A DNA stretch of 64,000 nt, taken from contig WRKU01000002.1 of assembly GCA_009777935.1 (NCBI GenBank), positions 11,205 through 75,204 on the forward strand. Direction: 5' to 3'. The DNA comes from Coriobacteriia bacterium (GTDB lineage: Bacteria; Actinomycetota; Coriobacteriia; WRKU01). This document shows, one piece after another, positions 26,808-60,498 of this stretch. Numbering within the stretch: position 1 is the stretch's first letter; each line of letters starts with the position of its first letter. The translations under genes and the position numbers were made by a program. Under the pieces are notes generated by a model, which did not search any database, had not been told where the DNA came from, and saw only the letters and a list, made by a program, of their open reading frames with translations.

Positions 26808-26818
26808 GGAACCACCCG

Positions 26819-32544: not shown

Positions 32545-32559
32545 GAGACGGTCGAGAAG

Positions 32560-37012: not shown

Positions 37013-37035
37013 GAAACACCTCTCTGTGTATTTGC

Positions 37036-37075
37036 TTGACAACCTTTTAGTATTATAGAATAGAAGACTGGGATA
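37036..37075 (+). promoter_or_regulatory. Putative sigma-70-like promoter (TTGACA plus a TATAGAAT-like -10) in the divergent intergenic region
   Basis: 'TTGACAaccttttagtatTATAGAAT' in the AT-rich 107-bp gap between the divergent genes at 37012 (-) and 37120 (+). Confidence 0.3.
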
Positions 37076-37119
37076 TGTGCGGAATACCAAACATATCGAT
37101 AAGATGACCAAGGAGAAAC

Positions 37120-40100
37120 ATGGCTTATTCGCGGAAACTTCTGTCGTCCGTGTTAACCTGCGTCCTTTTGCTCAACGTCTTTGCTCCCACTCTTGCGTTT
37201 GCGGAAAATGGGAGTGTTCAGGCGGAATCTGACGTAAATACCGCCCATGAGGATATTACGACAGGTACCGGCATCGGCCTTGATGACGGCACTGGCGGTA
37301 CTGGCTCAAGTGAGCAGAAAAACATCACGTTCGATTTTGCGTCGACCGTCTACGAAGAGACCGTCGATGCCATTGTTGATGTCGTCGAATACGTGTATAT
37401 CGATGCACTTGAACTTGTGTTGGGTACGCCACAGAACGTCGTCGTTGGTTTTATCGACGAGGAACTTGAACCAATTTCAGCGACGCTCTATTTTGAGCAT
37501 CTTGAGAGCGGGGCGCAACTGTCGGCAAAGGCAGATAATGCTATACCGGGTGCCGTGCTCTTTGAGCTCGATCCCGCCGATCTTTCGACACTCGGTTCTT
37601 ATCAGCTTACAAGTGTTGAGTATATGTTGGCGCTCGATGGTCACGTGTATGTCGTCGACTTCTCGACCGACCCCGAGAATGCTTACTTTTTTACTGTGGT
37701 AGAAGAAGGCACCAAAGGCGATGAAGGTGGGGATACGGTAGAGATTACCGCCTTTGCCGTCGATGAAGGCGGCGCTCTCGTCGAGCAAGAGGAACTTACC
37801 GTCGCGCTTGAAGAGGCAGAAAGTGCCATCACCGGGGTAGCCATTTCGGCATCTTCTGCGATAGCGCCAACGTCGAGTGCGGCGCAAATTGTTGTTGTGC
37901 TTGATCCCGGTCATGGGGGCACTGAGCCCGGTGCGGTGTACGGTGGTATGCGGGAGGCCGATATCAACCTTGCCATCGCACAGGCCTGTGCTGATGAGTT
38001 GAGGCAGTATGATGGCGTTAGGGTCGTCATGACGCGCACGACTAACGTAAACATGTCTATCGTTGATCGTGCCATCTTTGCTGCCAACCAAGGCGCACAC
38101 GTGCTCATTAGCATTCACTGTAATGCGAGCACTAACACAGCCGTCAACGGAGCCGAGATTTGGATTCCCAACAATGCAAGTTTCCACTTGGACCACCATT
38201 ACGCGGCTTCCCAGCTGTCTATTCGCATCCTTGCGGAGCTCCAACAGCTTGGTCTTGCCAATCGTGGTTTTTTTACGCGCAATGGTGATACGAACTACCC
38301 CAGTCCCGGTGGCCTGACCGACTGGTATGGACTTATTAGAGAGGCGCGCCTGCGTAACGTTCCCGCTATTATTGTCGAAAATGCTTTTATGAGCAACCCT
38401 ACGGAGATGGCACGTCTGAGCAATCCCAGCTTCCTTAGGCAGCTTGGCGCTGCTAACGCCACAGGAATTGCGCTTCATTTTGGTTTAACGAAGTGGACAT
38501 GGAATGCGCAGGTCAGCTCGACGCTTGCTTCGAATCAGCGCACCGCCACCATTACTATTGCACCTGCTGGCGCACCGGCGGGGCTCACCTCGATACGCGT
38601 ACCGGTGTGGGGTGCCGCAAATGGTCAGAACGATATCCGCTGGTACAACGCCGTGCGCCAGCCTAATGGTTCATGGACGGTTACCGTTCCCCTCTCCAAT
38701 CATCGTGAAACCGGGCGATACCATGCCCACGCCTACGCGCGTACAGACGGTGCCGAAAAACTCATTGGCTCAACGACCTTTACGGTTACGGCACCGACAG
38801 GCAGAATTGCTACCAGCCATTACAACGCTGCAGCAGGCACTTTTCGTGTCACGGTAAGCAACATCAACGCACCTGCCGGCATTTCACAGGTACGCGTTCC
38901 GGTATGGCATAACAACAATGGACGTCAAGAACACCTTGTATGGTACACAGCAACACGCCAGTCTAACGGGGATTACACCGTCAACGTCGCTGCCAGCAAT
39001 CACGGGTGGCGCACGGGTACCTATGAGGCTCACGCATATGTGCGCGATGGCAATGGTGCTGAAACACTAGTCGCAGGTACACGCCAAACGGTACAACGCC
39101 CTCCCGTTGAAGTACGCACGGCAGTCTCAAGCAATCAACGACAGGTGAGCTTTTATGTCGCCGGTGGACAGACCGTTAACGCCACGGCTGTTTGGTTCCC
39201 GACTTGGTCTAATCGTAACGGCCAAGATGATCTCGTGTGGCATCGTGCCACACGTATGGCCGATGGTTCCTGGCAGGCTACCGTACCGCTCTCACTTCAC
39301 CGTGATACCGGGGCATATACCATGCATGTGCATGCCGATATACCCGGCTCTGGACGTGTAGTGGTAGGTTCGAAGGCCTTTACGGTAACTCCACCGACCG
39401 GTCGTGTTTCTACCAGCCACTATAACGCCTCGACTGGTATGTTTCGTGTTACTGCCGGCAATCTGAGAGTGCCTCAAGGTATATCCGAGGTGCAGATTGC
39501 GGTATGGCGCGACAACAATGGACGCCAAGATCAGCTCAGGTGGTTTCGTGCCACACGTCAGGCCAATGGTGACTACACCCTTAACGTAGCGGCCAGCAAT
39601 CACGGATGGCTGACCGGCACCTACGTTGCTCACGCGTATGTGCGTGATGCTAACGGTCACTTCACGATAGTTGGCAGTGCGCGACAGAACGTACAGCGTC
39701 CTCCCGTTGAGGTACGCACTGCTGTGTCAAGCAATCAGCGACAGGTGAGCTTTTATGTCGCCGGTGGACAAACTGTCAATGCCACGGCTGTTTGGTTCCC
39801 GACTTGGTCTAACCGTAACGGTCAAGATGATCTCGTGTGGCACCGCGCGACGCGTATGGCTGACGGCTCCTGGCAGGCTACCGTACCACTTTCACTTCAC
39901 CGTGACGCTGGAGCATATACCATGCACGTTCATGCCGATATACCGGGTGGCGGTCGTGTCATAGCTGGCTCCAAAAACTTTACCGTTGCACCACCGACGG
40001 GCACTCCGGTAGTAAGAAGCGTGAACACCAACGCAGGTACGATGGTTGTCGAGATGACGGTGGGATCTCCTGCCGGTGTCCAAGCCGTCCAGTTCCCCTT

Positions 40101-40875
40101 CTGGAGTAATGCGAATCAGAGCGATATCCAATGGGTGAACGCGACGCATGTGGGTAACAACGTCTATCGTGCCACCTTGACGACGCCTCACCGCTTTGAC
40201 CGACAAGAACGCACCTATCAGATTCACGGATATGTGAGGACAGGCAACGGGCATTTTGTGCTTACCGGCTCTACCAGCAGAACCTTCTCCTACACCGGTA
40301 CGCTGAACGGGGCCCCGATTATGGGGGCATCGCAGACGAACGTTGCGCAGATGGTGCGTTACTTTAATAGTTCCGGTGCGACCTATCCCGGCCACATATA
40401 CGGCCAGTATGGGGCACCGACGATCACCGATTGGTGTCGTATTTTGCTCGAAGAAGCGAATCGAGAAGGTGTGCGTGCTGAAGTCGTGATGACCCAGGCG
40501 ATGAAAGAGACCGGATGGTTACGGTTTGGCGGACAGGTGCAGGTTGCACAGTGTAACTTTGGTGGTATTGGAGCTACCAACGGTGGTGCTGCCGGTGCGG
40601 ATTTCCGTCAATCTATGCAGGGTTCTCCTCTACAAGGCAGTGCTAATGGAGTGCGCCGAGGGTTGCGTGCACAGGTACAACACCTAAAAGGATATGCGAC
40701 CACTACACCGGCTGCGCAGTTTGCGACCTTTATCGAAAGTCCCCGCTTTCATTTCTTGGCAGATAGAAGGGGCGTAGCTCCAACGGTTATCGGTCTGAAC
40801 GGTCGATGGGCGGTGCCCGGTACGACCTATGGGCAGGATATTACCGCTATGATACAAGTGCTTCTGTCGAGATAG
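37120..40875 (+). CDS. Secreted modular cell-wall hydrolase: N-acetylmuramoyl-L-alanine amidase (Amidase_3), about 6 Bsp-like repeats, and a C-terminal glucosaminidase domain
   Basis: Signal peptide. 'VVVLDPGHGGTEPGAVYGGMREADINLAIAQ...' Amidase_3 domain. Tandem roughly 97-aa repeats ('VPVW..NGRQ..L.WY.A.RQ.NG.YT..V..S.H....G.Y..HAY'). C-terminal 'EVVMTQAMKETGWLRFGG...CNFGGIGAT' glucosaminidase-like domain. Confidence 0.75.
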   Translation: MAYSRKLLSSVLTCVLLLNVFAPTLAFAENGSVQAESDVNTAHEDITTGTGIGLDDGTGGTGSSEQKNITFDFASTVYEETVDAIVDVVEYVYIDALELVLGTPQNVVVGFIDEELEPISATLYFEHLESGAQLSAKADNAIPGAVLFELDPADLSTLGSYQLTSVEYMLALDGHVYVVDFSTDPENAYFFTVVEEGTKGDEGGDTVEITAFAVDEGGALVEQEELTVALEEAESAITGVAISASSAIAPTSSAAQIVVVLDPGHGGTEPGAVYGGMREADINLAIAQACADELRQYDGVRVVMTRTTNVNMSIVDRAIFAANQGAHVLISIHCNASTNTAVNGAEIWIPNNASFHLDHHYAASQLSIRILAELQQLGLANRGFFTRNGDTNYPSPGGLTDWYGLIREARLRNVPAIIVENAFMSNPTEMARLSNPSFLRQLGAANATGIALHFGLTKWTWNAQVSSTLASNQRTATITIAPAGAPAGLTSIRVPVWGAANGQNDIRWYNAVRQPNGSWTVTVPLSNHRETGRYHAHAYARTDGAEKLIGSTTFTVTAPTGRIATSHYNAAAGTFRVTVSNINAPAGISQVRVPVWHNNNGRQEHLVWYTATRQSNGDYTVNVAASNHGWRTGTYEAHAYVRDGNGAETLVAGTRQTVQRPPVEVRTAVSSNQRQVSFYVAGGQTVNATAVWFPTWSNRNGQDDLVWHRATRMADGSWQATVPLSLHRDTGAYTMHVHADIPGSGRVVVGSKAFTVTPPTGRVSTSHYNASTGMFRVTAGNLRVPQGISEVQIAVWRDNNGRQDQLRWFRATRQANGDYTLNVAASNHGWLTGTYVAHAYVRDANGHFTIVGSARQNVQRPPVEVRTAVSSNQRQVSFYVAGGQTVNATAVWFPTWSNRNGQDDLVWHRATRMADGSWQATVPLSLHRDAGAYTMHVHADIPGGGRVIAGSKNFTVAPPTGTPVVRSVNTNAGTMVVEMTVGSPAGVQAVQFPFWSNANQSDIQWVNATHVGNNVYRATLTTPHRFDRQERTYQIHGYVRTGNGHFVLTGSTSRTFSYTGTLNGAPIMGASQTNVAQMVRYFNSSGATYPGHIYGQYGAPTITDWCRILLEEANREGVRAEVVMTQAMKETGWLRFGGQVQVAQCNFGGIGATNGGAAGADFRQSMQGSPLQGSANGVRRGLRAQVQHLKGYATTTPAAQFATFIESPRFHFLADRRGVAPTVIGLNGRWAVPGTTYGQDITAMIQVLLSR
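38500..40290 (+). repeat. Intragenic tandem Bsp-like repeat array (period roughly 290 nt, with a two-repeat super-period near 600 nt)
   Basis: 39090-39350 and 39690-39950 are about 90% identical at the DNA level. About 1.5 kb of the array is also near-identical to the inverted copy at 58690-60165. Confidence 0.8.
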
Positions 40876-42810
40876 GTGGCGGTTTTGTTAAAGAAACTCG
40901 CCCGCTATGTGCGGGATAAAGTAAGGCCGCTTTTCTGTTATCTGCAGGATAAGCTCAAGATAACGGCGGTCCGAAACCTCTTCCGCTTCGTTGAGATCAA
41001 GAAGTCGGAAGTCTTTGGCCTCGTAATGTTTGCTGTGATTTTTACCGTCTTTGAAGGCATGGGGGTTACCTTCCTCCTCCCCATTCTTCAATACGCGGAG
41101 TCGGGCGGCTCAGCCGTTGAAAACTCAAGCGGTTTTATCTGGGAGACTATCGCAGACATACTCGCGCTCGTAAACCTTGAGCCGACGCTCATCGTGCTGC
41201 TCATTATGGCTTTTATACCCATCTTGCTGCGCAACGTACTCTTCTACATGAGAGCGTGGTACAGCTCGGTTGTGTCGAGTCGTATCATGTTGCGATTGCG
41301 CATGAAGGTCGCCGATGTTATCTATGCCTCTGACCCCGAATTCTTTACGCGACATCCCGTCGGTGAGCTCTATGGGGTAGTGATGTCAAAGACCTCAACG
41401 GCAGGCGGTGCGGTACTAGCCATTATCAACCTCCTTGGTATTGGCCTGCTGCTCGTTATGTACACGGCTATTTTGTTGTTGCTCTCCGTTCCCTTGACAC
41501 TCGTTGCGCTAGGCTTTGCTCTCGTGGTGTCGCTCGTGAACAAGCGGGTGCTCAAATGGATTGCGGCCAACTCACTTAAGACGGCACGCCTGAGCCAAAA
41601 ACTCACCGCGAAGATTGTCGAGCGTATGGGACAGATGCAGCTCGTCAAGCTACGCCACACCGAAAAAGAAGAGGTCGAGAACATCAGGTATACGTCAGAG
41701 ACGATGCGTATGCTTGGCATCAAAGCAGCTAAGGTGGGGGCCGGTGTTGAAATTATCGTCGACCCTATCATGATGCTCTCTGTTTTTGTAACACTCTACA
41801 TCGCTATCGCCGTTCTTGGCTCAACGCTTGCGCAGCTGACGCTCGTCATCTTTATCTTGACGCGGCTCAATGGGCGCGTGAGGGAGTTCAACGGTGCGCT
41901 GCAGGGGATCACGAGCGCGACGGCTGGTGTCAAACTTGTCAACGAGATGTTTGAGGCTTCGCAAGAGGCAAACGTTATTGTATCGGGGCCGCGGGAGTTC
42001 ACCGGTGCGCAAGAGTCAATCGAGTTTCGTAACGTGGCGTTTGACTATCCCGATGTGTACTCGGCGAAAGGCGCGCTCGTATCGGTCGGCAGACCGGTTA
42101 TCGCTGACTTTAATGCAACCATCAAGGCGGGTTCGTTTACGGCATTGGTGGGCCGTAGTGGTGCCGGTAAATCGACGCTCGTCGAGCTTATTCCGCGTAT
42201 GCGTGAGGCGACGGCCGGCGAAATTCTGTATGACGGTGTGAGCATTAAAGAGTTTCAGGTTGGGTCTTTGCGTCGCGGCATAGGATACGTTACTCAGACG
42301 CCGATGCTCTTCAACAATACCGTCTATGAGAACCTCACCTACGGTCTCGATCGTGAGCCGGCCGGTCATGAGGTATACGATGCGCTTGAGAAAGCGCACG
42401 CGACCTTTGTCTACGACCTGCCAAAGGGACTTGAGACGAAGATTGGCGATCGAGGTGTTCGTTTTTCGGGGGGTGAACGCCAACGTATTGCTATGGCACG
42501 CGTGCTACTTGCCGATCCTGATGTATTCGTTTTCGACGAGCCGACCTCTGCCCTCGATAGTGAGAGCGAAGGCTATATTCAGCAGACTCTTAATGCACTC
42601 CATGGCCAGAAGACACTCATCGTTATCGCTCATCGTCTTGCGACTGTGGTGGCCGCCGATCAGCTTCTCGTCGTCGATAAAGGAAAGGTCGTCGAACGAG
42701 GCACTCACACAGATCTTATTGCACAAGATGGGGTATATGCGGATCTCTTCCAGAGCCAGCTTCTCGGTTTTGACGGCGATGAGAGTGGGCAGAAAGAAAG
42801 CAGCGCATAA
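40876..42810 (+). CDS. ABC exporter, fused permease/ATPase (MsbA-like half transporter)
   Basis: Six TM helices, Walker A 'GRSGAGKST', ABC signature 'LSGGERQRIAMAR', Walker B 'VFVFDEPTSALD'. Confidence 0.85.
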   Translation: MAVLLKKLARYVRDKVRPLFCYLQDKLKITAVRNLFRFVEIKKSEVFGLVMFAVIFTVFEGMGVTFLLPILQYAESGGSAVENSSGFIWETIADILALVNLEPTLIVLLIMAFIPILLRNVLFYMRAWYSSVVSSRIMLRLRMKVADVIYASDPEFFTRHPVGELYGVVMSKTSTAGGAVLAIINLLGIGLLLVMYTAILLLLSVPLTLVALGFALVVSLVNKRVLKWIAANSLKTARLSQKLTAKIVERMGQMQLVKLRHTEKEEVENIRYTSETMRMLGIKAAKVGAGVEIIVDPIMMLSVFVTLYIAIAVLGSTLAQLTLVIFILTRLNGRVREFNGALQGITSATAGVKLVNEMFEASQEANVIVSGPREFTGAQESIEFRNVAFDYPDVYSAKGALVSVGRPVIADFNATIKAGSFTALVGRSGAGKSTLVELIPRMREATAGEILYDGVSIKEFQVGSLRRGIGYVTQTPMLFNNTVYENLTYGLDREPAGHEVYDALEKAHATFVYDLPKGLETKIGDRGVRFSGGERQRIAMARVLLADPDVFVFDEPTSALDSESEGYIQQTLNALHGQKTLIVIAHRLATVVAADQLLVVDKGKVVERGTHTDLIAQDGVYADLFQSQLLGFDGDESGQKESSA

Positions 42811-42812
42811 CT

Positions 42813-44210
42813 ATGGGTAAGAAGCCGGCCTCGGTTGGCATTGTGCTTGCGGCATATAACTCCGCGGAGTTTCTTGAGCGCGCAGTACATTCGGTACAGG
42901 CGCAAACCTGCAAGGACTGGCAGCTTGTTATCGTTGACGATGCCTCGACCGATGATACCTATGCGATTGCGTGTCGGCTTGCTGCCGATGACGCGCGCAT
43001 TGTGGCGCTTACCTATGAGGAGAACAGGGGGCGTGAGTACGCACGCCAGCATGGGCTCGAACACCTCGATACGCAATGGGTGACCTATCTTGACCATGAC
43101 GATGCCTTCGATCCGCGCTGGTGTCGCACGATGCTGAAAACGGCGCGTCGTCACCCCGGCTATGTGATGTATGGCTGTAACTGGGAGTTTTATCGCTACC
43201 GTCCGAATGCCGGGCAGACAGGTGAGTTCGAGCCTACGGGTCGCACCATGTTTCATGAGACAGAGCTAGTCGAAGTCGATTTCCTCACGCACATTCGCGG
43301 ATGGGCACAAGGGTGGAGAATTTGGATGAATGGCACGATTATCGATCGTGCGTGGTTCATGGGCATCGGCGGATACAGCTTTTACGGGGAGAATATCGGC
43401 GATGATATTCTGCCGGCGCTTTCGATTCTGCATCGGGGAACCGGGCTTCGTATTCCGCAGGTTTTGTACCATCATACACGCGGCGTTGAAGGACAGGGAT
43501 CATCACTTTCGCTCGACCGCCTCTGGGAGAAAAATATTACGTATTACACGCTTTTCCTTGAAAAAGAACAGCTTAACGCCGATGAAAAAGAGGCGATGCA
43601 GGCTGAAATACGTAAGATGCAACGTTTTATCGAAAGTCGCCGAGGGGAAGTATACAATCCGCTCGATGAGCGGGCGAAGATTGCGCCGGCGGTTTTTACC
43701 GATGAAGCGATAGGGAAGAACTCGCTCGCAGGGTGCACGGTATGCCTCGTGCATCCTTTTGGAACAGGTGCCTACGATATGCGGGTACACAAGACGGCCT
43801 ACGCGCTGTATCGACTGGGAGCTACGGTTACGCTGATTGCTGACGCAGCAACGGAAGGCACGTGTCACGATGCGGCCTGGACACCATTTGACTACCCGCT
43901 GCATATCCAGCAGTTGAAGACGCCGTTGCTGCGTCGACACCGCCCGTATCGTAACGTAACAGGCTGGCTCGTGCGTGAAGCGCGTGAAGCGAAGCGGTTC
44001 GATGTCATCGGGTTTTTTGGGCCGGATGCGCAGAAGGAAGCTGAACTTCTACACGAACAATATGGCATGCGTACCGCACACGATGCTTATCTCGAGACCG
44101 ATATCTCCTTTGAGGTTCTGCCTGAGGTAGGAGATTACGATGGTTCGAGCTACTGTGAGGCGCACCAAGCAGCGGCTTTGTATGCTACGTATGGCGTGGC
44201 CAGTGCTTAG
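42813..44210 (+). CDS. Glycosyltransferase family 2 with C-terminal extension
   Basis: 'VGIVLAAYNSAEFLERAVHSVQAQTCKDWQLVIVDDASTDDT' GT2 N-terminus. Confidence 0.75.
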   Translation: MGKKPASVGIVLAAYNSAEFLERAVHSVQAQTCKDWQLVIVDDASTDDTYAIACRLAADDARIVALTYEENRGREYARQHGLEHLDTQWVTYLDHDDAFDPRWCRTMLKTARRHPGYVMYGCNWEFYRYRPNAGQTGEFEPTGRTMFHETELVEVDFLTHIRGWAQGWRIWMNGTIIDRAWFMGIGGYSFYGENIGDDILPALSILHRGTGLRIPQVLYHHTRGVEGQGSSLSLDRLWEKNITYYTLFLEKEQLNADEKEAMQAEIRKMQRFIESRRGEVYNPLDERAKIAPAVFTDEAIGKNSLAGCTVCLVHPFGTGAYDMRVHKTAYALYRLGATVTLIADAATEGTCHDAAWTPFDYPLHIQQLKTPLLRRHRPYRNVTGWLVREAREAKRFDVIGFFGPDAQKEAELLHEQYGMRTAHDAYLETDISFEVLPEVGDYDGSSYCEAHQAAALYATYGVASA

Positions 44211-44230
44211 GCATCTGCTACCATAGTCTT

Positions 44231-45382
44231 ATGAGCAAAACTCACGATAAAGCTGACAAAATCGCCGTCGGTATCATCTGTGACGAAGCAGGCTCCTTAT
44301 TCGAGGGCGGCACATCGCTTCCGCGTTTTGGCGGTGCCGGTTTGCATATGTATCTGCTTGGCAAGGGGCTGAGCGCGAATCCGCGCTACGACGTGCGTTT
44401 TATCTTTACCTATACGCCTCCGGTCAACCTGCACGAAGACAATATTTCGTTTATCTGGCTCAAGACCGTTTCGCATGCTCTTGAGCGTAGGCTTGCTCGC
44501 TGGATACCTCCGTTGCGTAACGCACTCGGCGCACGCCCCTATCGCAATCTACCCGAAAAACGTGTGTTTATTACCACGATGGCCGATTTTGCTCCGCATC
44601 TTATTGAGCAGGCGAACTACGCCGAGGCCAAGACCATCTTTCAGACTGCGTGTGAGCTCGATGTGACGCAGCCATATGAGCGCACGCCCGAAGACGGCGC
44701 GGTGTTGCTCGACACCATCGCTGCGTGTGACCAGGTTTTCGTACAAACTGAAGCTCAGCGTGATAATCTGCGTGCTAATCGCGGCAAGGACTCAATCGCT
44801 GTCCATAAAGGGTGGCCGGCACCTCTGCGACGTCCCTCGATTAGCGGTCGAGACTATGTCTTGTGGGTGGGCAGCGCCCAGATGGTGAAGCAGCCGTGGC
44901 TATTTTTTGACACTGCGCGCTTATTGCCAGATATCCCCTTCGTTGGTGTCATGCCTCCCGCCGTCAAGAGTGTGGCCGACTACGCGCGCCGACAAGCAAG
45001 TGAGCTGCCTAACGTTACGCTGATCGATAAGCAGTTGGGATATCGTGAGGTGCAGGAGTACTTTGGCAAGGCCGCCGTCTATCTCTATACGACCGAGTTC
45101 GGCACGCACCCGGAGTTGACGGTCATTCAGGCTGCCGTCGGCGGTGCAGCAATCGTTTCTGAACGTCTTGATCCCGATGACGGCATGTTTGTTCGTAAGG
45201 AGTGCGGTCTCGTTACCGGTGTGGGTGCAAATCGACTTGCTGCCGGTATCACCACCGTCTTAGACGATGTGGCACTCAGAGAAACGCATACGCAAAATGC
45301 CTTCGATTACGTTGCGCATCACTACAGTTACGAGGGCATGATAGAGGCATACGAAGAGGTTATCGATGGCTTTTTCGCATAA
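44231..45382 (+). CDS. Glycosyltransferase family 4 (GT-B)
   Basis: 'FGGAGLHMYLLGKGL' N-terminal motif. C-terminal GT1 'TEFGTHPELTVIQAAVGGAAIV'. Confidence 0.7.
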   Translation: MSKTHDKADKIAVGIICDEAGSLFEGGTSLPRFGGAGLHMYLLGKGLSANPRYDVRFIFTYTPPVNLHEDNISFIWLKTVSHALERRLARWIPPLRNALGARPYRNLPEKRVFITTMADFAPHLIEQANYAEAKTIFQTACELDVTQPYERTPEDGAVLLDTIAACDQVFVQTEAQRDNLRANRGKDSIAVHKGWPAPLRRPSISGRDYVLWVGSAQMVKQPWLFFDTARLLPDIPFVGVMPPAVKSVADYARRQASELPNVTLIDKQLGYREVQEYFGKAAVYLYTTEFGTHPELTVIQAAVGGAAIVSERLDPDDGMFVRKECGLVTGVGANRLAAGITTVLDDVALRETHTQNAFDYVAHHYSYEGMIEAYEEVIDGFFA

Positions 45383-50401: not shown

Positions 50402-50403
50402 GG

Positions 50404-51111: not shown

Positions 51112-51123
51112 CAGGTATTCATT

Positions 51124-52498
51124 GGTGTTCGCAAAATATCGCACATCCATTCTGCTTGCGACCGTCGCGCTCGTTGCTCTGCTCGTCTTCAGTGTCGTTG
51201 CGTATCTCAGGGGTCCGGCAGAGATCGTCGGTGATTCACTTTCTTACGTGGCCGCCGCACAGCGCTTGATAACGACTGGCACGTTCGACATGAGCAGAGA
51301 GCCTTCTCTTGAAGTTATTGATGGACCGACCGCATGGGCGATGCCGGGCTATACGTTTTTTCTGGTGCCCTTGTACTTGATGTCGGGCGTCAGCGATGAT
51401 TTTTATGCGAACGTGCACAATGTCTATCCGTTGATTGTAGGGATGCAGCTCGTACTTGCCGCACTTAGCGTTGCTGTGCTGGCAGGGTGTGGGTTTTTGC
51501 TACAGGGCAATCGCGGTGCTTTTCTTGTGGGTGTACTTGGTATCTGTTATCTTCCTCTTGCATTCAATGCAGCCTACATCGGCACCGAAACGCTCGCGTT
51601 CTTCCTGACATCACTCGTGCTTTTATGTGCACTCGGCCTTTTGCAAACATCGGTTGGGAAACGTGCGATATTGTGGGCGTGCGCACTCGGGGTTGTCGGT
51701 GGTCTGCTCGTGCTTGTGCGTCCCTCTATTTTGCCGTGGCTGCTCGTTCCGACGGTATTTTATGTGATTCTCAACCGCACGCAGTTAGCCCGCGCACTTG
51801 TGATTGCCCTGGCGTGCGTGGCGTGCGTCGGGCTGGTGATGAGCCCGTGGATAGTGCGCAACGCTGTCGTTTTTGGCGAGTTTATTCCTTTGACGAGCGG
51901 CTCCGGGCATCCCTTGTTTGCGTCTGTCTCCTCAGACCCGATTACTGCTGAAGACGAAGACTTCATGCAGCAGGCTGAAGCGCGTGGTGAAGACGGATAT
52001 CGAGCGTTAGCGTTCCAACGCCTCTCTGCGCGCTGGCATCAAGACCCCGTGGAATTCGTACTTTGGAAGGTGGAGACAATCGGCTCGGCAGCCACAAGGT
52101 ATCCAGACACCACTTTTGACGCATGGGTATGGAAGAATACCGTATGGCCGGCGATGGACGAGGCCGAACGGGTCACTTTCCATGCGGTTGAGCAGGCGGA
52201 CGTCAAAGACCCCTACAGCCATTTTGACCGAGCGCTCAGGTTGTGGACAGCTTACTATCATCGACTTTTGCTCGTTATGGCGGTGTTTGGCTTTGCGGTT
52301 TCTCTCAAGAAATGGGAAGGGTGGTTTCTCGCTTCGCTGCCGGTCTTTTTTCTGTTGGTACACACGTACTTTGTGGTCGAGCCTCGCTACCTGTACTACA
52401 ATGTTACTGCAGTTGTTCTTCTTGCAATGTTGGGCGTGTATTTTTGTGTCGATAAACTTGGCGCGCTTTCGGGTGCAGGCACGAGAGATGAGGATTAA
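51124..52498 (+). CDS. GT-C-like polytopic membrane glycosyltransferase, paralog 2
   Basis: The ORF opens at 51008 and overlaps the upstream gene. A likely TTG or GTG start near 51124 gives 'VFAKYRTSILLATVAL...'. The loop 'IVGDSLSYVAAAQRLITTGTFDMS' is homologous to the gene at 45366. Confidence 0.45.
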
Positions 52499-52500
52499 CC

Positions 52501-53607
52501 ATGGCTATACCACTGCTCGATCTTACGAACCAGTACTTTGAGCTCAAAGAAGAGTCCGATGCTATCTGGTTTGACGTCATGGAAAACTCTGCCTATATCG
52601 GGGGACCGCGGGTGGCTCAGCTCGAGAAAGAGCTCGCCGAATACGTTGGCGTCAAGCATTGCATAGCGTGCGCGAACGGTACTGACGCACTGTTCCTTAT
52701 CCTCGAAGCACTCGGCATAAAGCGCGGCGACGAAATTATCACGACACCGTGGACCTTTTTTGCCACCATCGAATGCATCACGCATCTCGGTGCGAAGCCG
52801 GTTATGGTCGATATCGATCCACGCTCCTACAATATCGACCCTGCGGCGATTGAGGCCGCGATTACGCCGAACACAAAGGCGATTATTCCGGTACATATCT
52901 ACGGTCAGTGTTGTGATATGGATGCCATTAACGACATCGCTAAACGGCATAATCTCTTCGTCATCGAAGACGCCTGTCAGGCGATGGGGGCGGCTTATAA
53001 AGGTAAGCGTGCCGGCGCACTTGCGGATGCTGCGGCGTTTAGCTTCTACCCGACGAAAAATCTGGGCTGTGGTGGCGACGGTGGCTGCATCACGACCGAC
53101 AATGACGAGGTCGCTGCGCGTATTCGCCTTATTGCGACGCACGGTATGCCGCAGCCTTATCGACACACAGCGTTTGGGGTAAACTCGCGCCTCGACGCGC
53201 TTCAAGCTGGACTACTGTCCCTGCGTCTCGCTAAACTTGATGAGTGGAACGGCCAGCGTGCTGCTGAGGCCGCCTACTACAACGAGCAACTTGCCGGTGT
53301 GGGTGATCTCATCACGCCGCATGGCGAAGACTTCAGTACGCATATCTACCATCTCTATATCCTCAAAACCGACCACGCACCCGAACTCCAACAATATCTA
53401 CGCGATCAAGGTATCGGCGCCGCCATCTACTATCCTCTTGCGCTGCACGAACAGGAGTGCTTCGACCTTTTGCCCGATTACGTGAAGCCGTCGCTGCCGA
53501 TTGCCGAAGAATGTGCAAACAAGACGCTTGCCATCCCGTGTTTCCCCGGTCTCACGCGCGAGCAACAAGACGAGGTTATCGCAGCTATCAAGAAGTTTTT
53601 TACGTAG
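52501..53607 (+). CDS. DegT/DnrJ/EryC1-family sugar aminotransferase (WbpE/PglE-like)
   Basis: 'LLDLTNQYFELKEESDAIWFDVMENSAYIGGPRVAQLEKELAEYVGVKHCIACANGTDAL' is canonical. Confidence 0.85.
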   Translation: MAIPLLDLTNQYFELKEESDAIWFDVMENSAYIGGPRVAQLEKELAEYVGVKHCIACANGTDALFLILEALGIKRGDEIITTPWTFFATIECITHLGAKPVMVDIDPRSYNIDPAAIEAAITPNTKAIIPVHIYGQCCDMDAINDIAKRHNLFVIEDACQAMGAAYKGKRAGALADAAAFSFYPTKNLGCGGDGGCITTDNDEVAARIRLIATHGMPQPYRHTAFGVNSRLDALQAGLLSLRLAKLDEWNGQRAAEAAYYNEQLAGVGDLITPHGEDFSTHIYHLYILKTDHAPELQQYLRDQGIGAAIYYPLALHEQECFDLLPDYVKPSLPIAEECANKTLAIPCFPGLTREQQDEVIAAIKKFFT

Positions 53608-54550
53608 TACAGAGCGCCTCAATCTGCTCGACGAGCTCGACAGCACGCAGACCGTCCTCACCGGTAACGAGCGGCTCACGTTTGCTGAGAACAGCGTCGT
53701 AGAAGTCGTCTTGCTCGAGGCGGAGCGGCTCGCCGCCGGACACCAGTGTCGGAATCTCGACAACGCTTGCCTGTGAGAAAACGACCTCGTCGTTCTCACG
53801 CGTGTATTTGACCTCGGCCTCGCGTTTTATCTCAATCTCTTGGCGCAAGGTATCGGCGATGAAGAAACGCTCTGGCTCGGCAATAGTAATACGGCGCACT
53901 TTGTCCTGAGTAACGCGCGAAGTCTGTATGGTGGCGATACACCCGTTCTCGAACTCGATAACGGTGCTCGCAACATCAATCGTCTCGCTGAAGACCTTCG
54001 TACCTGCCGCGCTGACTTTGACCGGACTACTCTTCGCAAGCCAGCAGGCAAGATCGACGTCGTGCACGGTGAGATCGTAGATAACGCTGTCTTTAATGCG
54101 CGGGGTGTAGGGCGACAGGCGCTCAATCGAAATCATCTTTGGATCGTCGGAGAGTCGAGAAAGCGTCTGAATAGCTGGATTAAAACGTTCTACGTGTCCG
54201 ACGGCGAGTTTTACCCCGGCAGCCTTGGCGGCATCGACAATCTGGCGAGCCGTCTCGGGGCACTCTGCAAGAGGTTTCTCGATGAGGAGGTTGACGTTGC
54301 GCTCGATAAGCGTTAATGCAATCTCGCCGTGGCAGTGGGTTGGGGTCACGACGACGGCGACATCGATGGGGGGCAACTCATCCATCGATGCAAATACCGG
54401 CGCTCCCCACGGTGCGGCGACCTCTTGCGCACACGCAAGGTCAGGATCAACGACACCAACGAGTTCGACATCGGGGTGCTGTGACATGATGCGTACGTGA
54501 TGGCGCCCCATTCTGCCGGCACCGAAGACCGCTCCGCGAAGTTGTGACAT
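53600..54550 (-). CDS. Gfo/Idh/MocA-family NAD(P)-dependent oxidoreductase (WbpB-like)
   Basis: 'LRGAVFGAGRMGRHHVRIMSQHPDVELVGVVD' Rossmann N-terminus. Converges on and overlaps the aminotransferase end. Confidence 0.8.
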   Translation of the reverse strand: MSQLRGAVFGAGRMGRHHVRIMSQHPDVELVGVVDPDLACAQEVAAPWGAPVFASMDELPPIDVAVVVTPTHCHGEIALTLIERNVNLLIEKPLAECPETARQIVDAAKAAGVKLAVGHVERFNPAIQTLSRLSDDPKMISIERLSPYTPRIKDSVIYDLTVHDVDLACWLAKSSPVKVSAAGTKVFSETIDVASTVIEFENGCIATIQTSRVTQDKVRRITIAEPERFFIADTLRQEIEIKREAEVKYTRENDEVVFSQASVVEIPTLVSGGEPLRLEQDDFYDAVLSKREPLVTGEDGLRAVELVEQIEALCTT

Positions 54551-54580
54551 GCGTGCCTCCCTGAGTGAACGTACAAATAC

Positions 54581-55300
54581 CTAGAAGTTAACCGCCGGTG
54601 CGTTGTCGCCATCGAGGCAGACCTCGACCTCTTGAGTTGCCGCACCACCAGGTGCCGGAGCGACGTTTTCGACGGCAGGCGCAGTATAGGTGGAGCTTGC
54701 CGCCGCTTCTGCGGCAGCGGCAGCCTCTGCTGCGGCCAACGCTTCGGCCTCAAGCGCTGCCCGGTGAGCATGCGCCGCCTCCTTCGTGTTTACCGTCTCA
54801 TTCGTCTCAGGATCGACGTACTCGATGAAGAGTACCTCGCCGTCATAGCGCACGGTGAACTCATCAAGAACGTCGAGTCCTACGGCGTAAAGCTCCATAG
54901 TAGAGCCATCTTCAAAGGTGAAGAGGAAGTTGTAGAGGGTATTGATAGCACGCTCATCGTCGCCGTCCGCCGCACTATCGGTGACGGTTTCGTCCGGAGT
55001 AGCTACGTCAGCAGGAGGGGTGAAAAAGACGCGAACCGTTTCATTGGTCTCGATGAAAGTGTCCGCCTCTATCAAGCCTGCCGGATACGCCGGTGCCAAT
55101 GCATCCTTGATAGCCATTTCGGTAATCACGAGGCCGGTGCCGTTTGTCATGAGAAATGCGAGAGCACCGGTGGTTTCCGTTCCGATAGTCTGGTACTCCG
55201 GTGCCGAATCTTCCTCGATGGGTGCCTCTTCTTCCGGTGTGCAGGCAGACACGGTAAACACAAGCCCTGCAATGAGTAATACGAACAATATCTTTCTCAT
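54581..55300 (-). CDS. Hypothetical lipoprotein
   Basis: 'MRKILFVLLIAGLVFTVSAC' lipobox. Acidic mature protein with an Ala-rich helical tail. Confidence 0.45.
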   Translation of the reverse strand: MRKILFVLLIAGLVFTVSACTPEEEAPIEEDSAPEYQTIGTETTGALAFLMTNGTGLVITEMAIKDALAPAYPAGLIEADTFIETNETVRVFFTPPADVATPDETVTDSAADGDDERAINTLYNFLFTFEDGSTMELYAVGLDVLDEFTVRYDGEVLFIEYVDPETNETVNTKEAAHAHRAALEAEALAAAEAAAAAEAAASSTYTAPAVENVAPAPGGAATQEVEVCLDGDNAPAVNF

Positions 55301-55302
55301 GG

Positions 55303-56763
55303 TTAGTTCTCCTGTGATATGATGCCGGTTGCTACAACAGACTGTTTCCCACTGTCTTCAAGAATAACATAGAATGGTGTGTCGTTTTGTTCAAGCGATG
55401 TCTTGCGAAGGTAGAGGCGGAACCCATATGCGCTTGGCAATCCGTCTCTTGTTGCTGTGATATAGAACGGCTGATACACACGTGGCACGGTGTCACCCTG
55501 TTGCTCAAGCGCGATGTATATCTGCACGTTGGGATGCTGCGCAAGCTGAGGATCCAGTATGCCATCGACGACGACATAGTCTCCATCGGTATGGACCGCC
55601 GTGAGAGTTGGGGTAGCGGTCTCGTCGTTAGCGTCGAGCGTAAGAGACAGCTCGTTGAAGGCCGGTAAAGCGACCTCAACAGTTGGCCCTTCAAAGACCG
55701 GAGGGTTATCCTGCCAGAGCGAAATGCTGCGTTCAGCACGCTGAAAGACGACGTAGTCGAAAGATCCTGTCAGAAGATCGTATTCGAGGTTATAAGGGAT
55801 ATATTGCGTGAAGACTGCACGTTCAAACTCTTCAGCAAAGAACGGGACAAGCATATCGGCGAACGAATCTCGATACATCAAGAGCGATCCCGTCTGTGCG
55901 GGATTGGCCGTCACAAGATAGTCACTGTTAGCGTCCTGTGTTTTGTCCACGTAACGAAGTTTCAGGTTTTCGTGGTAGACGTAACCTTCCTCGTGGTCTA
56001 CATTTTCAATCAGGAGCATGCGGTCGAGATCACCGACATTGACCGGCTCAATACGAGGATTCACGCTTTCATAACGCCCATGCTCTCTGTCCAAGGTATC
56101 CAGAACAGTACTATACGCGATAAGAGCACCTCGGTTATTCCAGTGTGTATCGCGCTTATAGTAGATGCCAAGACCGGAAAGGTTTTGCTCTGCCGCGGCA
56201 GCACGAAGGGGAGCAAAAAGGTCGGCATAGGTGACCTCGGTATGAGCAAGATGCTCTTCGAGGAGGTCGATGTTCGAGGTGTCGCTTACCACTCGGTAGC
56301 GGGTCGGCATGTACTTGCCGTACACCGAGTTCTTGTTCGGCGCAATCGTTGCCACAAACTGCGCACCGTGACGTTCGACAAAACTCTGTGTGAGTTCGAG
56401 GTTGTGGACGATATTGTATGCTTGGCGTTCTGACATGAGGTTTCTGCCAAGATAATCATCGAGTGTTTCGACAAAGAAAAGCCACTCGTTGGTACCGATA
56501 ATGACCTGATTGGTCGCCGAAACCCCGACGGCGTATCTCATGTGGCCGTTGAGACTCAAAAACTCTTTGCGATAGGCAAAGTTTTCTTCGAAGAAATCGC
56601 CCAACTTTGCAAGATACGCAAGGTCAAAGATAACTTCCTCAGAAGGAGCAGGCATTTCAGAGGTATCTGTCTCATACCATAACAGCCCTACCAGAGGGAG
56701 CAGCAGGATTGCCATGCCGAGGGTCAGATAGAAGGCAATGAGGGCTTTGCGCACAGATGCCAT
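55303..56763 (-). CDS. AlgX/AlgJ/DHHW-like SGNH-fold protein, membrane-anchored (polysaccharide O-acetylation partner)
   Basis: N-terminal TM helix. 'YYKRDTHWNNRGAL' (the D-x-H-W catalytic motif of AlgX/AlgJ/DHHW proteins). Immediately downstream of an MBOAT gene. Confidence 0.55.
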   Translation of the reverse strand: MASVRKALIAFYLTLGMAILLLPLVGLLWYETDTSEMPAPSEEVIFDLAYLAKLGDFFEENFAYRKEFLSLNGHMRYAVGVSATNQVIIGTNEWLFFVETLDDYLGRNLMSERQAYNIVHNLELTQSFVERHGAQFVATIAPNKNSVYGKYMPTRYRVVSDTSNIDLLEEHLAHTEVTYADLFAPLRAAAAEQNLSGLGIYYKRDTHWNNRGALIAYSTVLDTLDREHGRYESVNPRIEPVNVGDLDRMLLIENVDHEEGYVYHENLKLRYVDKTQDANSDYLVTANPAQTGSLLMYRDSFADMLVPFFAEEFERAVFTQYIPYNLEYDLLTGSFDYVVFQRAERSISLWQDNPPVFEGPTVEVALPAFNELSLTLDANDETATPTLTAVHTDGDYVVVDGILDPQLAQHPNVQIYIALEQQGDTVPRVYQPFYITATRDGLPSAYGFRLYLRKTSLEQNDTPFYVILEDSGKQSVVATGIISQEN

Positions 56764-56765
56764 CG

Positions 56766-58217
56766 TTAAAACCTCGCGTAGATGAACGGGCTATAGGTCA
56801 TTGCCGACAGTGCAAGGAGGCACAGCATGAGCAGCATGAGGCTCAACGCATAGGAGGCGAAGGTGGCAGCTTTCAGTATCGATGGACGACACGAGAGCTG
56901 TGGGAAGCACGAGAAACGCTCGTCCGAAAGCATGCGCTTTGCCCATACGCGTAAGGGAAGGAGCCCGATGAGGGCTACGGTGATGGTCGCAACAAAGAGA
57001 GGATCGAACTGCTCAAAGGCAAGGCTCAGTGCTGCTGCCGATTGGTGCCAGCCCACAAACATCTGCGTGATAAAGTGCCATGCCTGCGTGAGGGTATCTG
57101 CGCGAAAGATAACGAATCCTATGGTGATGAGGAGCAGCGCATATCCGTGCTGCAGTAATCGAGGGAGCTTCTTGAAGGGTACATAGTCTTCGAGGACAAC
57201 GCAGAAGCCCTGTAACATGCCCCATACGACGAACGTCCAGTTAGCACCGTGCCAGAGCCCCGTACAGAAAAAGACGAATAGCTTGTTGCATGCGGTCTTC
57301 AGCTTCCCCTGACGGTTGCCGCCAAGGGGAATGTAGAGATAGTCTCGAAACCACGCACCGAGCGTCATGTGCCAGCGACGCCAAAACTCCTGGATACCGC
57401 GTGAGCCATAGGGGTAGTTGAAATTCTCGGGGAAGGTGAACCCAAACATAAGCCCCAGCCCGATTGCCATGTCGGTATATCCACTGAAATCGTAGAATAT
57501 CTGTAGCAGAAAGGCGATAGCGGCAATCCACGCGCCGAGTGCCCCAATATGCTCTGAGGGCGCGGCGAACAGAGCATCGACGGCGAGACCAAGTGTGCTA
57601 GCAATCAATACCTTTTTACCGAGCCCTGTGATAAAGCGACGAAAGCCGCGCGCCATCTCGGGCGAGCGAAGTGGTCGTACGGTAAGTTGCGGAGCTATCT
57701 GGTCGAACCTCACAATCGGTCCGGCAATAATGCGCGGAAAAAATGCAATGTGAAGACAGACATGCCCGAAGTTGCGTGTCGCCCCAATGGTGCCACGGTA
57801 TACATCGACGACGTACGAGATGGCTTGAAAGGTAAAGAACGAGATGCCGAGAGGAAGGAGAATCGCCGGTGTTGACCACGAGGTACCTACGAGATGGTTG
57901 AAGGTCTCGGTAAACATGATGCTGTACTTGCACACGCCGAGTACGGCCACATTGACGATAACGGCGAGAGCGAGGGAGCCTTTTGCGAGTACCGGACGTG
58001 AGTCCCGTCGTGCTTTGCCGATAAGCAATCCCAGCAGGTAGTTAAAGACCGTGCTCGCAAACATGAGCGCAATAAAGACTGGCTCACCGTAAGCGTAGAA
58101 CAAAAAACTTGCACAGATGAGAAGTGCGTTACGTGCACGAGTACTCGGAGTGACGACGTAGAGCAGGACAACGAGCGGCAGAAAGACGCACAGAAAAACG
58201 AACGAATCAAAGAACAT
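56766..58217 (-). CDS. MBOAT-family membrane O-acyltransferase (AlgI/DltB-like)
   Basis: 483 aa, at least 10 TM helices. The conserved His-containing MBOAT region ('LWHGANWTFVVWGMLQG') is present. Confidence 0.8.
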   Translation of the reverse strand: MFFDSFVFLCVFLPLVVLLYVVTPSTRARNALLICASFLFYAYGEPVFIALMFASTVFNYLLGLLIGKARRDSRPVLAKGSLALAVIVNVAVLGVCKYSIMFTETFNHLVGTSWSTPAILLPLGISFFTFQAISYVVDVYRGTIGATRNFGHVCLHIAFFPRIIAGPIVRFDQIAPQLTVRPLRSPEMARGFRRFITGLGKKVLIASTLGLAVDALFAAPSEHIGALGAWIAAIAFLLQIFYDFSGYTDMAIGLGLMFGFTFPENFNYPYGSRGIQEFWRRWHMTLGAWFRDYLYIPLGGNRQGKLKTACNKLFVFFCTGLWHGANWTFVVWGMLQGFCVVLEDYVPFKKLPRLLQHGYALLLITIGFVIFRADTLTQAWHFITQMFVGWHQSAAALSLAFEQFDPLFVATITVALIGLLPLRVWAKRMLSDERFSCFPQLSCRPSILKAATFASYALSLMLLMLCLLALSAMTYSPFIYARF

Positions 58218-58263
58218 TGTGGCGGTCTCTTGCTATATTCTTTCGGGCAGGTCTTCGTGCATG

Positions 58264-60390
58264 CTACCAGCGATAACTTAAGACATGACCACCGGGCGGC
58301 TGCATATAAAAATTATATCCGCGCATAGAGCGTTGTGCTTCAGGGTCACAGATATACACGACACCTCCGCTGGTAATGTTGACCCAACTATGAGGCCCCC
58401 AGCCACCATTTGCCAAACGTACTTCTCCGGAGACAGCCTGTGCGTTATGTCCGAGTGCACGTGCGAGGTAATAGAACAGCGCGGCATAGCTATAGCAGTT
58501 ACCGGCTCCGTCTCGAATCATATTGAGCGCGTAGGGGGTCTCCCATCCCGGTGCCGGATAGAGGCCCCGTTGTTGCCACGAGAAGTTATTGACCACATAC
58601 ATATAGGCAGCGTGGAGGTCGTTGCCGGTTATCGCAAGGATCCTCTGTATTTCACGATTGAGCTCCGCGTTTGAAGAAATCAAGGCACCGGTATAGGCAA
58701 AGGTTCTGCTCGTTGAGCCGGTGAGTACCAAGTGTCCGTTGCCGGTACGCACATATCCATGAATCTGATAGGTACGACTGTTTCTGTCGAACTTGTGAGG
58801 GGTCGTCAGCGTTGCACGATAGACGTTGTTGCCTACATGCGTCGCTGTCACCCATTGGATATCGCTCTGATTCGCGTTACTCCAGAAGGGGAACTGAACG
58901 GCTTGGACACCGGCAGGCGACGCCACCGTCATCTCGACGACCATCGTACCGGCGTTGGTGTCTACGCTTCGCACCGTTGGCCTGCCTGTAGGTGTCGCAA
59001 TCGTAAAGGCCTTCGAGCCGACAATGATGCGACCAGAGCCGGGTATATCGGCGTAGACGTGAGTAGTGTAGGCTCCGACGTCACGATGAAGCGAGAGGGG
59101 TACGGTAGCCTGCCATGAGCCATCGGCCATACGCGTGGCTCTGTGCCATACGAGATCATCTTGACCATTGCGGTTAGACCAGGTTGGGAACCAGACAGCA
59201 GTCGCACTGAAGGTCTGTCCCCCTGCCACGTAAAAACTTACCTGTCGTTGGTTGTTTGACACGGCAGTGCGCACCTCAACGGGAGGACGCACGACGCTTT
59301 GTCGCGCACTGCCAACTATTGTGAAATGCTCGTTGGCATCGCGCACATACGCGTGAGCGATATAGGTGCCGGTCAGCCACGCGTGATTGCTGGCCGCTAC
59401 GTTGAGGGTGTAATCACCATTGGCCTGACGTGTGGCACGAAACCACCTGAGCTGATCTTGGCGTCCGTTATTGTCACGCCATACCGCAATCTGCACCTCG
59501 GATATACCTTGAGGAACGCGCAGATTGCCGACGGTCACACGAAAGGTTCCTGCCGCAGTATTGTAGTGGCTCGTAGAGACGCGACCGGTCGGTGGCGTGA
59601 CCGTAAAGGTCTTCGAGCCGACAATGACGCGACCAGAGCCGGGTATATCGGCATGAACGTGCATGGTATATGCTCCAGCGTCACGGTGAAGCGAGAGGGG
59701 TACGGTAGCCTGCCAGGAACCGTCAGCCATACGCGTCGCGCGGTGCCACACCAGGTCATCTTGGCCGTTACGATTAGACCAAGTCGGGAACCAAACAGCC
59801 GTGGCGTTAACGGTCTGTCCGCCTGCAACATAAAAGCTTACCTGTCGCTGATTGCTTGAGACTGCCGTGCGTACTTCAACGGGAGGGCGCTGTACGGTCT
59901 GCCGCGTGCCTCCAAGCAATGTTTCAGCACCATTGCTATCGCGCACGTATGCGTGAGCTACATAGGTGCCGGTGCGCCACCCGTGATTGCTGGCAGCGAC
60001 GTTAACGGTGTAATCGCCGTTAGACTGACGTGTTGCCGTGTACCATATGAGGTTATTTTGCCGTCCGTTACTGTCGTGCCATACCGGAACGCGTACCTGT
60101 GAAATGCCGGCAAGTGCGTTGATGTTGCTTACCGTGACACGGAACGTGCCGGCAGCAACATTGTAGTGGCTTGTGGCAATTCTGCCCGTCGGGCGTGTGA
60201 CCGTAAGGGCCACTGAGCTCTCTTCCAAAAGAAGCATATGTGGCGTTTCGCTTGCGCCGGAGGAAAGATCGCTTCCAAGGGTGTTTCCGCTTGCGTATCC
60301 TCCCATTGTGACGGTTAATGCGCAAACGACGAGTGCGAGAAAAAGAGTCTTTTTTGTAATATGACGTTCAGAGACGTTAAAAGCCCTCAT
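58264..60390 (-). CDS. Secreted Bsp-like-repeat protein with a C-terminal transglutaminase-like cysteine-protease domain
   Basis: Signal peptide 'KKTLFLALVVCALTVTMGGYASG'. Five repeats near-identical to those of the gene at 37120. C-terminal 'AGNCYSYAALFYYLARALG...GPHSWVNI...YICDPE' (Cys/His/Asp triad, transglutaminase-core-like). Start ATG at 60390 (the ORF extends to 60426). Confidence 0.65.
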   Translation of the reverse strand: MRAFNVSERHITKKTLFLALVVCALTVTMGGYASGNTLGSDLSSGASETPHMLLLEESSVALTVTRPTGRIATSHYNVAAGTFRVTVSNINALAGISQVRVPVWHDSNGRQNNLIWYTATRQSNGDYTVNVAASNHGWRTGTYVAHAYVRDSNGAETLLGGTRQTVQRPPVEVRTAVSSNQRQVSFYVAGGQTVNATAVWFPTWSNRNGQDDLVWHRATRMADGSWQATVPLSLHRDAGAYTMHVHADIPGSGRVIVGSKTFTVTPPTGRVSTSHYNTAAGTFRVTVGNLRVPQGISEVQIAVWRDNNGRQDQLRWFRATRQANGDYTLNVAASNHAWLTGTYIAHAYVRDANEHFTIVGSARQSVVRPPVEVRTAVSNNQRQVSFYVAGGQTFSATAVWFPTWSNRNGQDDLVWHRATRMADGSWQATVPLSLHRDVGAYTTHVYADIPGSGRIIVGSKAFTIATPTGRPTVRSVDTNAGTMVVEMTVASPAGVQAVQFPFWSNANQSDIQWVTATHVGNNVYRATLTTPHKFDRNSRTYQIHGYVRTGNGHLVLTGSTSRTFAYTGALISSNAELNREIQRILAITGNDLHAAYMYVVNNFSWQQRGLYPAPGWETPYALNMIRDGAGNCYSYAALFYYLARALGHNAQAVSGEVRLANGGWGPHSWVNITSGGVVYICDPEAQRSMRGYNFYMQPPGGHVLSYRW
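58690..60165 (-). repeat. Bsp-like repeat array, inverted near-identical copy of 38790-40290
   Basis: The reverse complement of 59800-59930 matches 39090-39230 with only scattered mismatches. Repeat order R2-R6 is conserved. Confidence 0.8.
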
Positions 60391-60498
60391 ATAATGGCAC
60401 TGCCCTCTCATGTTTTTGGCTACCATCTGCGTGTGTGTACAAGTCTTTATTTTATCATATCGGCTATAATGCTCGTACGGACCCTAAGGGGAGAAGAC

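Follow-up and report, generated by a model that had tools for sequence, protein, structure and literature searches.

The DNA analysed here is a 64,000-nt stretch (the window) of contig WRKU01000002.1, a single contig of a Coriobacteriia metagenome-assembled genome (MAG), and the whole of it is a cell-envelope glycan region. Two cell-wall hydrolase genes in the window, named gene A and gene B here, carry the two arms of a long inverted repeat. Gene A (37120..40875, plus strand; called from its open reading frame (ORF) and Pfam) encodes a protein of 1251 aa. It contains, in this order, a Sec-type signal peptide, an Amidase_3 domain (aa 259-451, E = 6.9e-40), six GBS Bsp-like units (GBS_Bsp-like, E = 2.8e-115, 6 stretches) and a C-terminal Glucosaminidase domain (aa 1109-1215), the last with an E-value of 5.2e-07 and a score of 30.8 bits, barely over the cutoff of 30.2. 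A crude hydropathy test showed a hydrophobic segment from residue 6 at the N-terminus (...APTLAFA/ENG). The product is identical to the database protein P0002. With a secretion signal at the N-terminus, the amidase before the repeats and the glucosaminidase after them, gene A is predicted to be an Atl-like bifunctional autolysin (amidase/glucosaminidase).

Gene B (58264..60426, minus strand; called from its ORF, Pfam and the record P0001) encodes 720 aa, or 708 aa when started at 60390 as in the NCBI annotation. An N-terminal hydrophobic signal or anchor is followed by five Bsp-like units (GBS_Bsp-like, E = 1.1e-96, 5 stretches) and by a C-terminal transglutaminase-like core of clan CA (aa 604-686, positions 58369-58617; Transglut_core, E = 4.1e-09). 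Its domains suggest that it is a second wall hydrolase, a transglutaminase-like cysteine hydrolase. The PF08481 profile scored gene A with 377 bits in 6 stretches and gene B with 317.5 bits in 5 stretches (cutoff 31.6). These matches were significant and lay in tandem, and both genes count as GBS Bsp-like repeat proteins. The domain calls made for the two hydrolases in a first-pass annotation of the window were upheld by Pfam.

When the region 36000-63000 was compared with itself, one dominant inverted repeat was recovered. Together with unit alignment, this comparison placed the left arm (units A1-A5) at 38768-40306 on the plus strand and the right arm (units B1-B5) at 58680-60218 on the minus strand. 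Each arm is 1539 nt long. The two arms align without gaps, are separated by 18,373 nt, and lie in frame within their genes with equal codon phase. The first-pass annotation had therefore pointed to the right places, its coordinates of 38790-40290 and 58690-60165 being off by about 50 nt at most. The repeat was reported by blastn (filter E <= 1e-20) as a single alignment of 1532 nt, and a 1.5-kb match at such identity is therefore far beyond chance. The edges of the homology block are sharp at both ends and the two genes are unrelated outside it. No further copies of the array were detected within the window by tblastn. Because of the strong divergence of its units and its true period of about 600 nt, the array escaped Tandem Repeats Finder, which reported nothing in 36000-62000.

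The annotation had also described the arms as close to identical at the DNA level, which was not borne out. The identity from arm to arm was 84.5% with 239 mismatches, and it varied from 67% to 95% in 60-nt windows. In register, the longest exact tracts measured 65, 53 and 41 nt, and out of register the longest was 50 nt; exact tracts of at least 50 nt in any register numbered three (the 65- and 53-nt tracts, and the 50-nt tract between units A4 and B2). The repeat is diverged, not near-identical.

The shared block consists of exactly five GBS Bsp-like units, which alternate between a 102-aa and a 98-aa subtype with a two-unit period of about 600 nt. This period also gives rise to the weaker off-register inverted repeats I2 and I3. 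In gene A (plus strand) the units are A1 (38794-39099), A2 (39100-39393), A3 (39394-39699), A4 (39700-39993) and A5 (39994-40299). In gene B (minus strand) they are B1 (59887-60192), B2 (59593-59886), B3 (59287-59592), B4 (58993-59286) and B5 (58687-58992). The order of 102/98/102/98/102 aa is shared by A1-A5 and B1-B5, in agreement with the first-pass annotation. Gene A has in addition a divergent first unit, A0 (38494-38793, plus strand), with 34-45% aa identity to the other units. The shared block starts about 9 codons before the end of A0, within its last strand, and stops 2-3 codons past unit 5. Such a sharp footprint suggests the duplication of a single block.

A structural model of unit A2, built from the 11 units of the window, was predicted to be a seven-strand beta-sandwich (mean predicted local distance difference test score (pLDDT) 78.6, predicted template-modelling score (pTM) 0.71). 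The nearest folds found by Foldseek were accessory or carbohydrate-binding beta-sandwiches of pullulanases, a Big_2 domain associated with CBM56, and FN3 domains. The best TM-score was 0.70 and no match had an E-value below 1e-3. Because these matches are generic (Ig/FN3/CBM-like), no specific ligand can be deduced from them; the modelled unit would be compatible with a glycan-binding module without being specific to one. A sequence search of the PDB with the array gave no match.

Most of the differences between the arms are located at third codon positions (173 of 239 mismatches, 72%). For the whole array, the Nei-Gojobori method gave a proportion of synonymous differences (pS) of 0.45, a synonymous divergence (dS) of 0.68, a nonsynonymous divergence (dN) of 0.056 and a dN/dS ratio (omega) of about 0.08. 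By unit pair, dS ranged from 0.5 to 1.3, and the third-position identity of partner units was only 53-73%. The even units A2, A4, B2 and B4 showed 88-97% identity in protein and 79-89% in DNA, with omega of 0.03-0.06, and overall arrays A and B are about 90% alike in protein, a likeness that reaches 94-97% in the even units. From these substitution patterns, the arms look like old paralogous copies that are alike through purifying selection on the protein. In the orthologous genes of the nearest sampled relative (MAG Emb289P3bin53, contig L007), the synonymous sites were saturated (pS 0.69-0.77). The duplication would therefore be younger than that split, yet old.

We consider it probable that the arms are paralogous copies of one cell-wall-targeting module in two hydrolases, and that their inverted layout is no switching device. 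According to the proposed explanation, the five-unit Bsp-like block would have been duplicated as one unit and would now serve in two different secreted wall hydrolases. Gene A and gene B would each be the first gene of one of two convergent operons, which together would build, export and O-acylate a cell-envelope glycopolymer. If both arrays bind the same envelope ligand, the protein would be constrained while the synonymous sites drift. The inverted orientation would simply follow from the convergent layout of the operons. The ligand may be a polymer of the wall or lipoteichoic type, and could be what this locus produces. One shared ligand is suggested by the analogy with the autolysin of Streptococcus suis (PMC13248702) and by the genomic position, and it would place a strong constraint on the protein sequence of the array.

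Several observations weigh against this explanation. The mismatches are clustered beyond what shuffling of codon columns produces (longest run of 65 nt, P = 0.005; sum of the top three runs, P = 0.0002). The parsimony-informative sites of the even units form a mosaic, in which 9 sites group the units by position, 4 by gene and 6 are crossed. Unit A4 is 88% identical to B2 but only 79% identical to B4, the unit at its own position. The available assemblies all come from one population and report just the majority arrangement, and no close strain or species for comparison was found in the protein and contig searches. Finally, the binding of the arrays to an envelope ligand, on which the explanation leans, is argued by analogy.

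The clustering and the mosaic bear first on the alternative that the arrays are actively homogenised by gene conversion, i.e. concerted evolution, as the first-pass annotation had proposed in stating that they are kept identical in this way. Besides the significant long identical tracts and the grouping of A4 with B2, the private changes are very uneven in number (2 in B2 versus 29 in B4). From the clustered mismatches and the mosaic it follows that some exchange of DNA between units occurred, and we read it as old exchange over short tracts, which took place among units of one gene as well as across the two genes. Uneven codon constraint could also contribute to the clustering. Recent conversion does not hold the arrays alike, because conversion copies synonymous sites as well and these differ strongly across the whole array; only tracts of 65 nt or less are over-represented. 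Any homogenisation would thus be old and limited to short tracts, and the proposal of arrays kept identical is contradicted by the synonymous divergence and by the predominance of third-position mismatches. We regard active homogenisation as unlikely.

A second alternative is that a RecA-dependent crossover between the arms flips the segment of about 18.4 kb, makes domain chimeras and swaps the operon bodies, giving rise to heterogeneity of the cell surface. The geometry allows it. The arms are ungapped and colinear in the same frame, and an inversion would yield intact alternative genes. A crossover would produce, in frame, an Amidase-array-transglutaminase-like protein and a signal peptide-array-Glucosaminidase protein. 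Each gene stands first in a presumed operon and has a divergent upstream region of its own; these two regions would stay fixed and the operon bodies would swap between them. At 65, 53, 50 and 41 nt, the exact tracts are longer than the minimal homology of roughly 30 bp quoted in PMC2327257, and RecABCD has been shown to invert segments between inverted genes that are 22% diverged (PMC2327257).

The divergence of the arms (15.5%) stands against such an inversion, given the published rates. In a lambda assay, RecABCD-dependent inversion occurred at about 3e-4 between identical copies but only at about 1e-6 once they were 22% diverged (PMC2327257), and on the E. coli chromosome a 1000-fold drop of recombination has been reported at only 4% divergence (cited in PMC2327257). 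At 15.5% divergence these rates would imply about 1e-6 per generation or less, so that inversion, if it takes place, would be expected on an evolutionary rather than a phase-variable time scale. The high synonymous divergence, the length of the longest exact tract and the overall identity are not those of a RecA-type switch between near-completely identical repeats. To our knowledge, the homology-driven switches that have been described rely on near-identical repeats, which we count against the inversion.

The orientation of the segment was examined in three contigs of the Joint Genome Institute (JGI) that were assembled independently (sample 3300002469) and represent only the majority arrangement of one population. 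The first of them (L004, 16.5 kb) matches window 30912-47376 with 100% identity and covers all of gene A with unique flanks. The second (L005) matches 54586-59659 with 99.98% identity and carries the O-acyltransferase genes and the distal half of gene B. The third (L006) matches 59585-63060 with 100% identity and carries proximal gene B and the epimerase. The latter two contigs were located through neighbouring genes; an exact look-up returned no record for gene B, whichever of its two start codons was used, or for the long epimerase ORF. Only the orientation of the window was seen in these three contigs and in the MAG contig. No flipped junction was found among the three contigs, and no chimeric protein architecture in two protein searches.

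The composition of the arms was also informative. The synonymous differences are biased (A:T/B:C 45 versus 21 in reverse, p = 0.004), and the sign of the bias does not change between the five units. The minus-strand neighbours of arm B are rich in C at third codon positions (C3-rich), and arm B resembles them; evenly along the array, the synonymous composition of each arm fits that of the strand around it. This modestly supports a long residence of each arm in its present context and counts against the inversion. Nothing in the GC-skew profile of 30-64 kb pointed to a block that was inverted recently, and this profile is uninformative.

With Pfam, no recombinase family was detected in ORFs of at least 180 aa in 1-34800 or in non-nested ORFs of at least 100 aa beyond, and no serine or tyrosine recombinase gene was found nearby within the window. 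A site-specific invertase encoded within the window was ruled out for this reason, which would leave homologous recombination as the only route.

Of the earlier proposal that the 18-kb segment could flip, the geometry with its in-frame chimeras and operon swap stands, while a single orientation was seen and the arms are diverged. The arms as RecA substrates fared similarly, with a few exact tracts above the minimal homology and a divergence that implies a very low rate. A RecA-dependent switch of cell-surface genes is in our view very unlikely, and an occasional homeologous crossover at the exact tracts of 50-65 nt, which would flip the segment and swap hydrolase domains and operon promoters, is more doubtful still. 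If true, homeologous inversion would be a slow, homology-driven form of surface variation in an uncultured gut Coriobacteriia lineage, and would put each of the two operons, exporter/glycosyltransferase and O-acyltransferase, under the promoter of the other. In a related reading, the high synonymous divergence would itself be favoured since it suppresses rearrangements. We infer that meaningful inversion is absent.

A collapsed or mis-joined repeat is the least credible alternative: the sequence comes from a single MAG contig, and the second and third JGI contigs both break inside the array at the 50-nt A4/B2 match, but the arms differ at 239 positions and so are not collapsed copies, the first JGI contig runs across the whole of arm A into unique flanks, and the other two share a 75-nt overlap and together cover gene B in exactly the arrangement of the window. 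Collapse during assembly was ruled out by the differing sites and by the independent contig across arm A. As an observation on its own, the second and third contigs end inside unit B2 (59585-59691), which matches 39895-39944 in A4 out of register over 50 nt. These ends are an assembly-graph break and not a rearrangement; the repeat fragments short-read assemblies.

The locus is thus best read as carrying an ordinary shared cell-wall-targeting module, for which a rare inversion is geometrically possible and unsupported. The genes around the two hydrolases form two strings that converge at about 53600. Downstream of gene A lies a presumed plus-strand operon (the operon reaching 40876..53607), in which the ABC exporter gene starts immediately after the stop codon of gene A. 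The exporter is followed by a GT2 glycosyltransferase gene, two ORFs without Pfam match (one with about 8 transmembrane segments) and three GT4 glycosyltransferase genes. Further on are genes of a hexapeptide acetyltransferase, a DUF2142-like polytopic membrane protein and a DegT aminotransferase. Downstream of gene B, a presumed minus-strand operon (53600..58217) contains genes of an MBOAT protein, an AlgX-like SGNH protein, a 239-aa ORF and a GFO/IDH/MocA oxidoreductase. The first-pass annotation had counted about 8 glycosyltransferases in the interval between the arms. We recognised 4, together with three membrane or unknown proteins.

Each hydrolase gene is about 107 nt away from a divergently oriented neighbour. 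The region between a minus-strand GT2 gene and gene A is 37013..37119 (from the gene calls of L004 mapped to the window), and that between gene B and the UDP-GlcNAc 2-epimerase gene is 60391..60498 (from the gene calls of L006 and the start of P0001). Both are presumed promoter regions. In a scan for promoters and terminators, sites were no more frequent than in shuffled sequence.

Some further features of the glycan region were observed. Two adjacent GT4 genes (46723-49244, plus strand) are paralogues with about 69.5% DNA identity over 660 nt, and their ORFs overlap. The two ORFs without Pfam match at 44231-46736 (plus strand) encode a soluble-looking protein of 383 aa and the protein of 456 aa with about 8 transmembrane segments. 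Two other ORFs without Pfam match are located at 54581-55300 (minus strand; 239 aa, with an N-terminal anchor) and 27997-30033 (plus strand; 678 aa, about 12 transmembrane segments). Such ORFs are candidates for polymerase-, ligase- or flippase-like components. Two tandem glycoside hydrolase family 3 (GH3) genes (25383-27997, plus strand) lie inside the polysaccharide biosynthesis region, and the pair is kept in the nearest sampled relative (L007). A cluster of ORFs for multihaem c-type cytochromes (5466-13451, plus strand) encodes proteins of 353, 421 and 600 aa, which contain 12, 9 and 6 CXXCH motifs, respectively. It has a TPR protein and membrane ORFs without Pfam match as neighbours and glycosyltransferase genes on either side, and may be an extracellular or respiratory electron-transfer module.

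The relatives of the two hydrolases are distant. A search of 5.8 billion protein clusters gave 33% identity for the closest relative of gene A. For that of gene B, leaving aside its own paralogue, the identity was 40% (P0003), and streptococcal proteins matched the array at about 35%. No relative of the array peptides was found in metagenome_contigs and genome_contigs, and a degenerate DNA pattern for the transglutaminase-like catalytic region returned nothing in metagenome_contigs. This lineage is very poorly sampled.

In L007, the ABC exporter is 69% identical to that of the window and directly follows the two GH3 genes (4166-4233), and the counterpart of window 27997-40875, including gene A, is absent. 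The absent part of about 13 kb holds the membrane protein with 12 transmembrane segments, rml-like genes, a GT4 gene, a GT2 gene and gene A. A weak homologue (28%) of this membrane protein sits downstream of the exporter in L007.

The locus does not reveal a new kind of genetic switch. It belongs to a common theme, in which one wall-anchoring repeat module is reused by different hydrolases, here beside genes for an envelope glycopolymer. It adds an Atl-like autolysin architecture for a poorly known gut Coriobacteriia group, and leads to a guess open to testing, namely that the polymer synthesised by this locus is what the Bsp-like array recognises. Protein conservation together with free synonymous drift also means that long repeats at the protein level need not be recombination substrates.

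Among known systems, the one closest in geometry is the sap locus of Campylobacter fetus, in which RecA-dependent inversion between oppositely oriented S-layer genes changes the gene body that is expressed. The shared blocks of sap are essentially identical 5' regions, and the promoter is on the invertible piece. As in sap, oppositely oriented surface-protein genes with a conserved block bracket a segment here. Unlike in sap, the block lies in the middle of the genes, is only 84.5% identical, and was seen in one orientation. The diverged oxa genes in phage lambda (Martinsohn, Radman and Petit 2008, PMC2327257) are also gene-sized inverted repeats that flank an invertible segment. They differ from the present case in being an engineered phage system in E. 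coli, and the rates may differ in Coriobacteriia.

In domain order, gene A resembles the staphylococcal autolysins Atl and AtlE, which also have a signal peptide, an N-acetylmuramoyl-L-alanine amidase, a central repeat array and a C-terminal glucosaminidase. The repeats alternate between two subtypes in both cases, as the a and b half-repeats of Atl reportedly do. The amidase of Atl is an Amidase_2 domain, whereas gene A has Amidase_3, with GBS Bsp-like beta-sandwiches instead of the Atl repeat type, and its host is a Coriobacteriia MAG. The scaffold of Amidase_3, repeats and Glucosaminidase occurs in other lineages with Bsp-like, ChW or choline-binding repeats in the middle.

In Atl of Streptococcus suis, the Bsp-like domain serves as the anchor of the enzyme and has lipoteichoic acid as its ligand (PMC13248702). 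Like this protein and other streptococcal PF08481 hydrolases, genes A and B combine an array of several Bsp-like units with a cell-wall hydrolase domain. The difference is that here one array is common to two different hydrolases, both in a glycopolymer biosynthesis locus.

The closest parallel to such a pair is the gene of P0003 in a distant Coriobacteriia MAG (contigs L001-L003). P0003 has eight Bsp-like units and a transglutaminase-like core, an architecture like that of gene B. In L001 (10001-16132) its gene is followed in direct orientation by that of a subtilase (Peptidase_S8, with a fervidolysin-like prodomain) that also has Bsp-like units. As in the window, Bsp-like arrays with a period of two units (579 nt in the distant MAG) are common to both secreted enzymes, and glycosyltransferase genes adjoin. 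Unlike in the window, the two genes are adjacent and directly oriented, their arrays are 72-76% identical in DNA, and the partner is an S8 protease. Judged from these gene arrangements, the general pattern is that different secreted enzymes take up wall-binding arrays as reusable modules, within glycan loci that are plastic, and the inverted arrangement of genes A and B is one layout among several.

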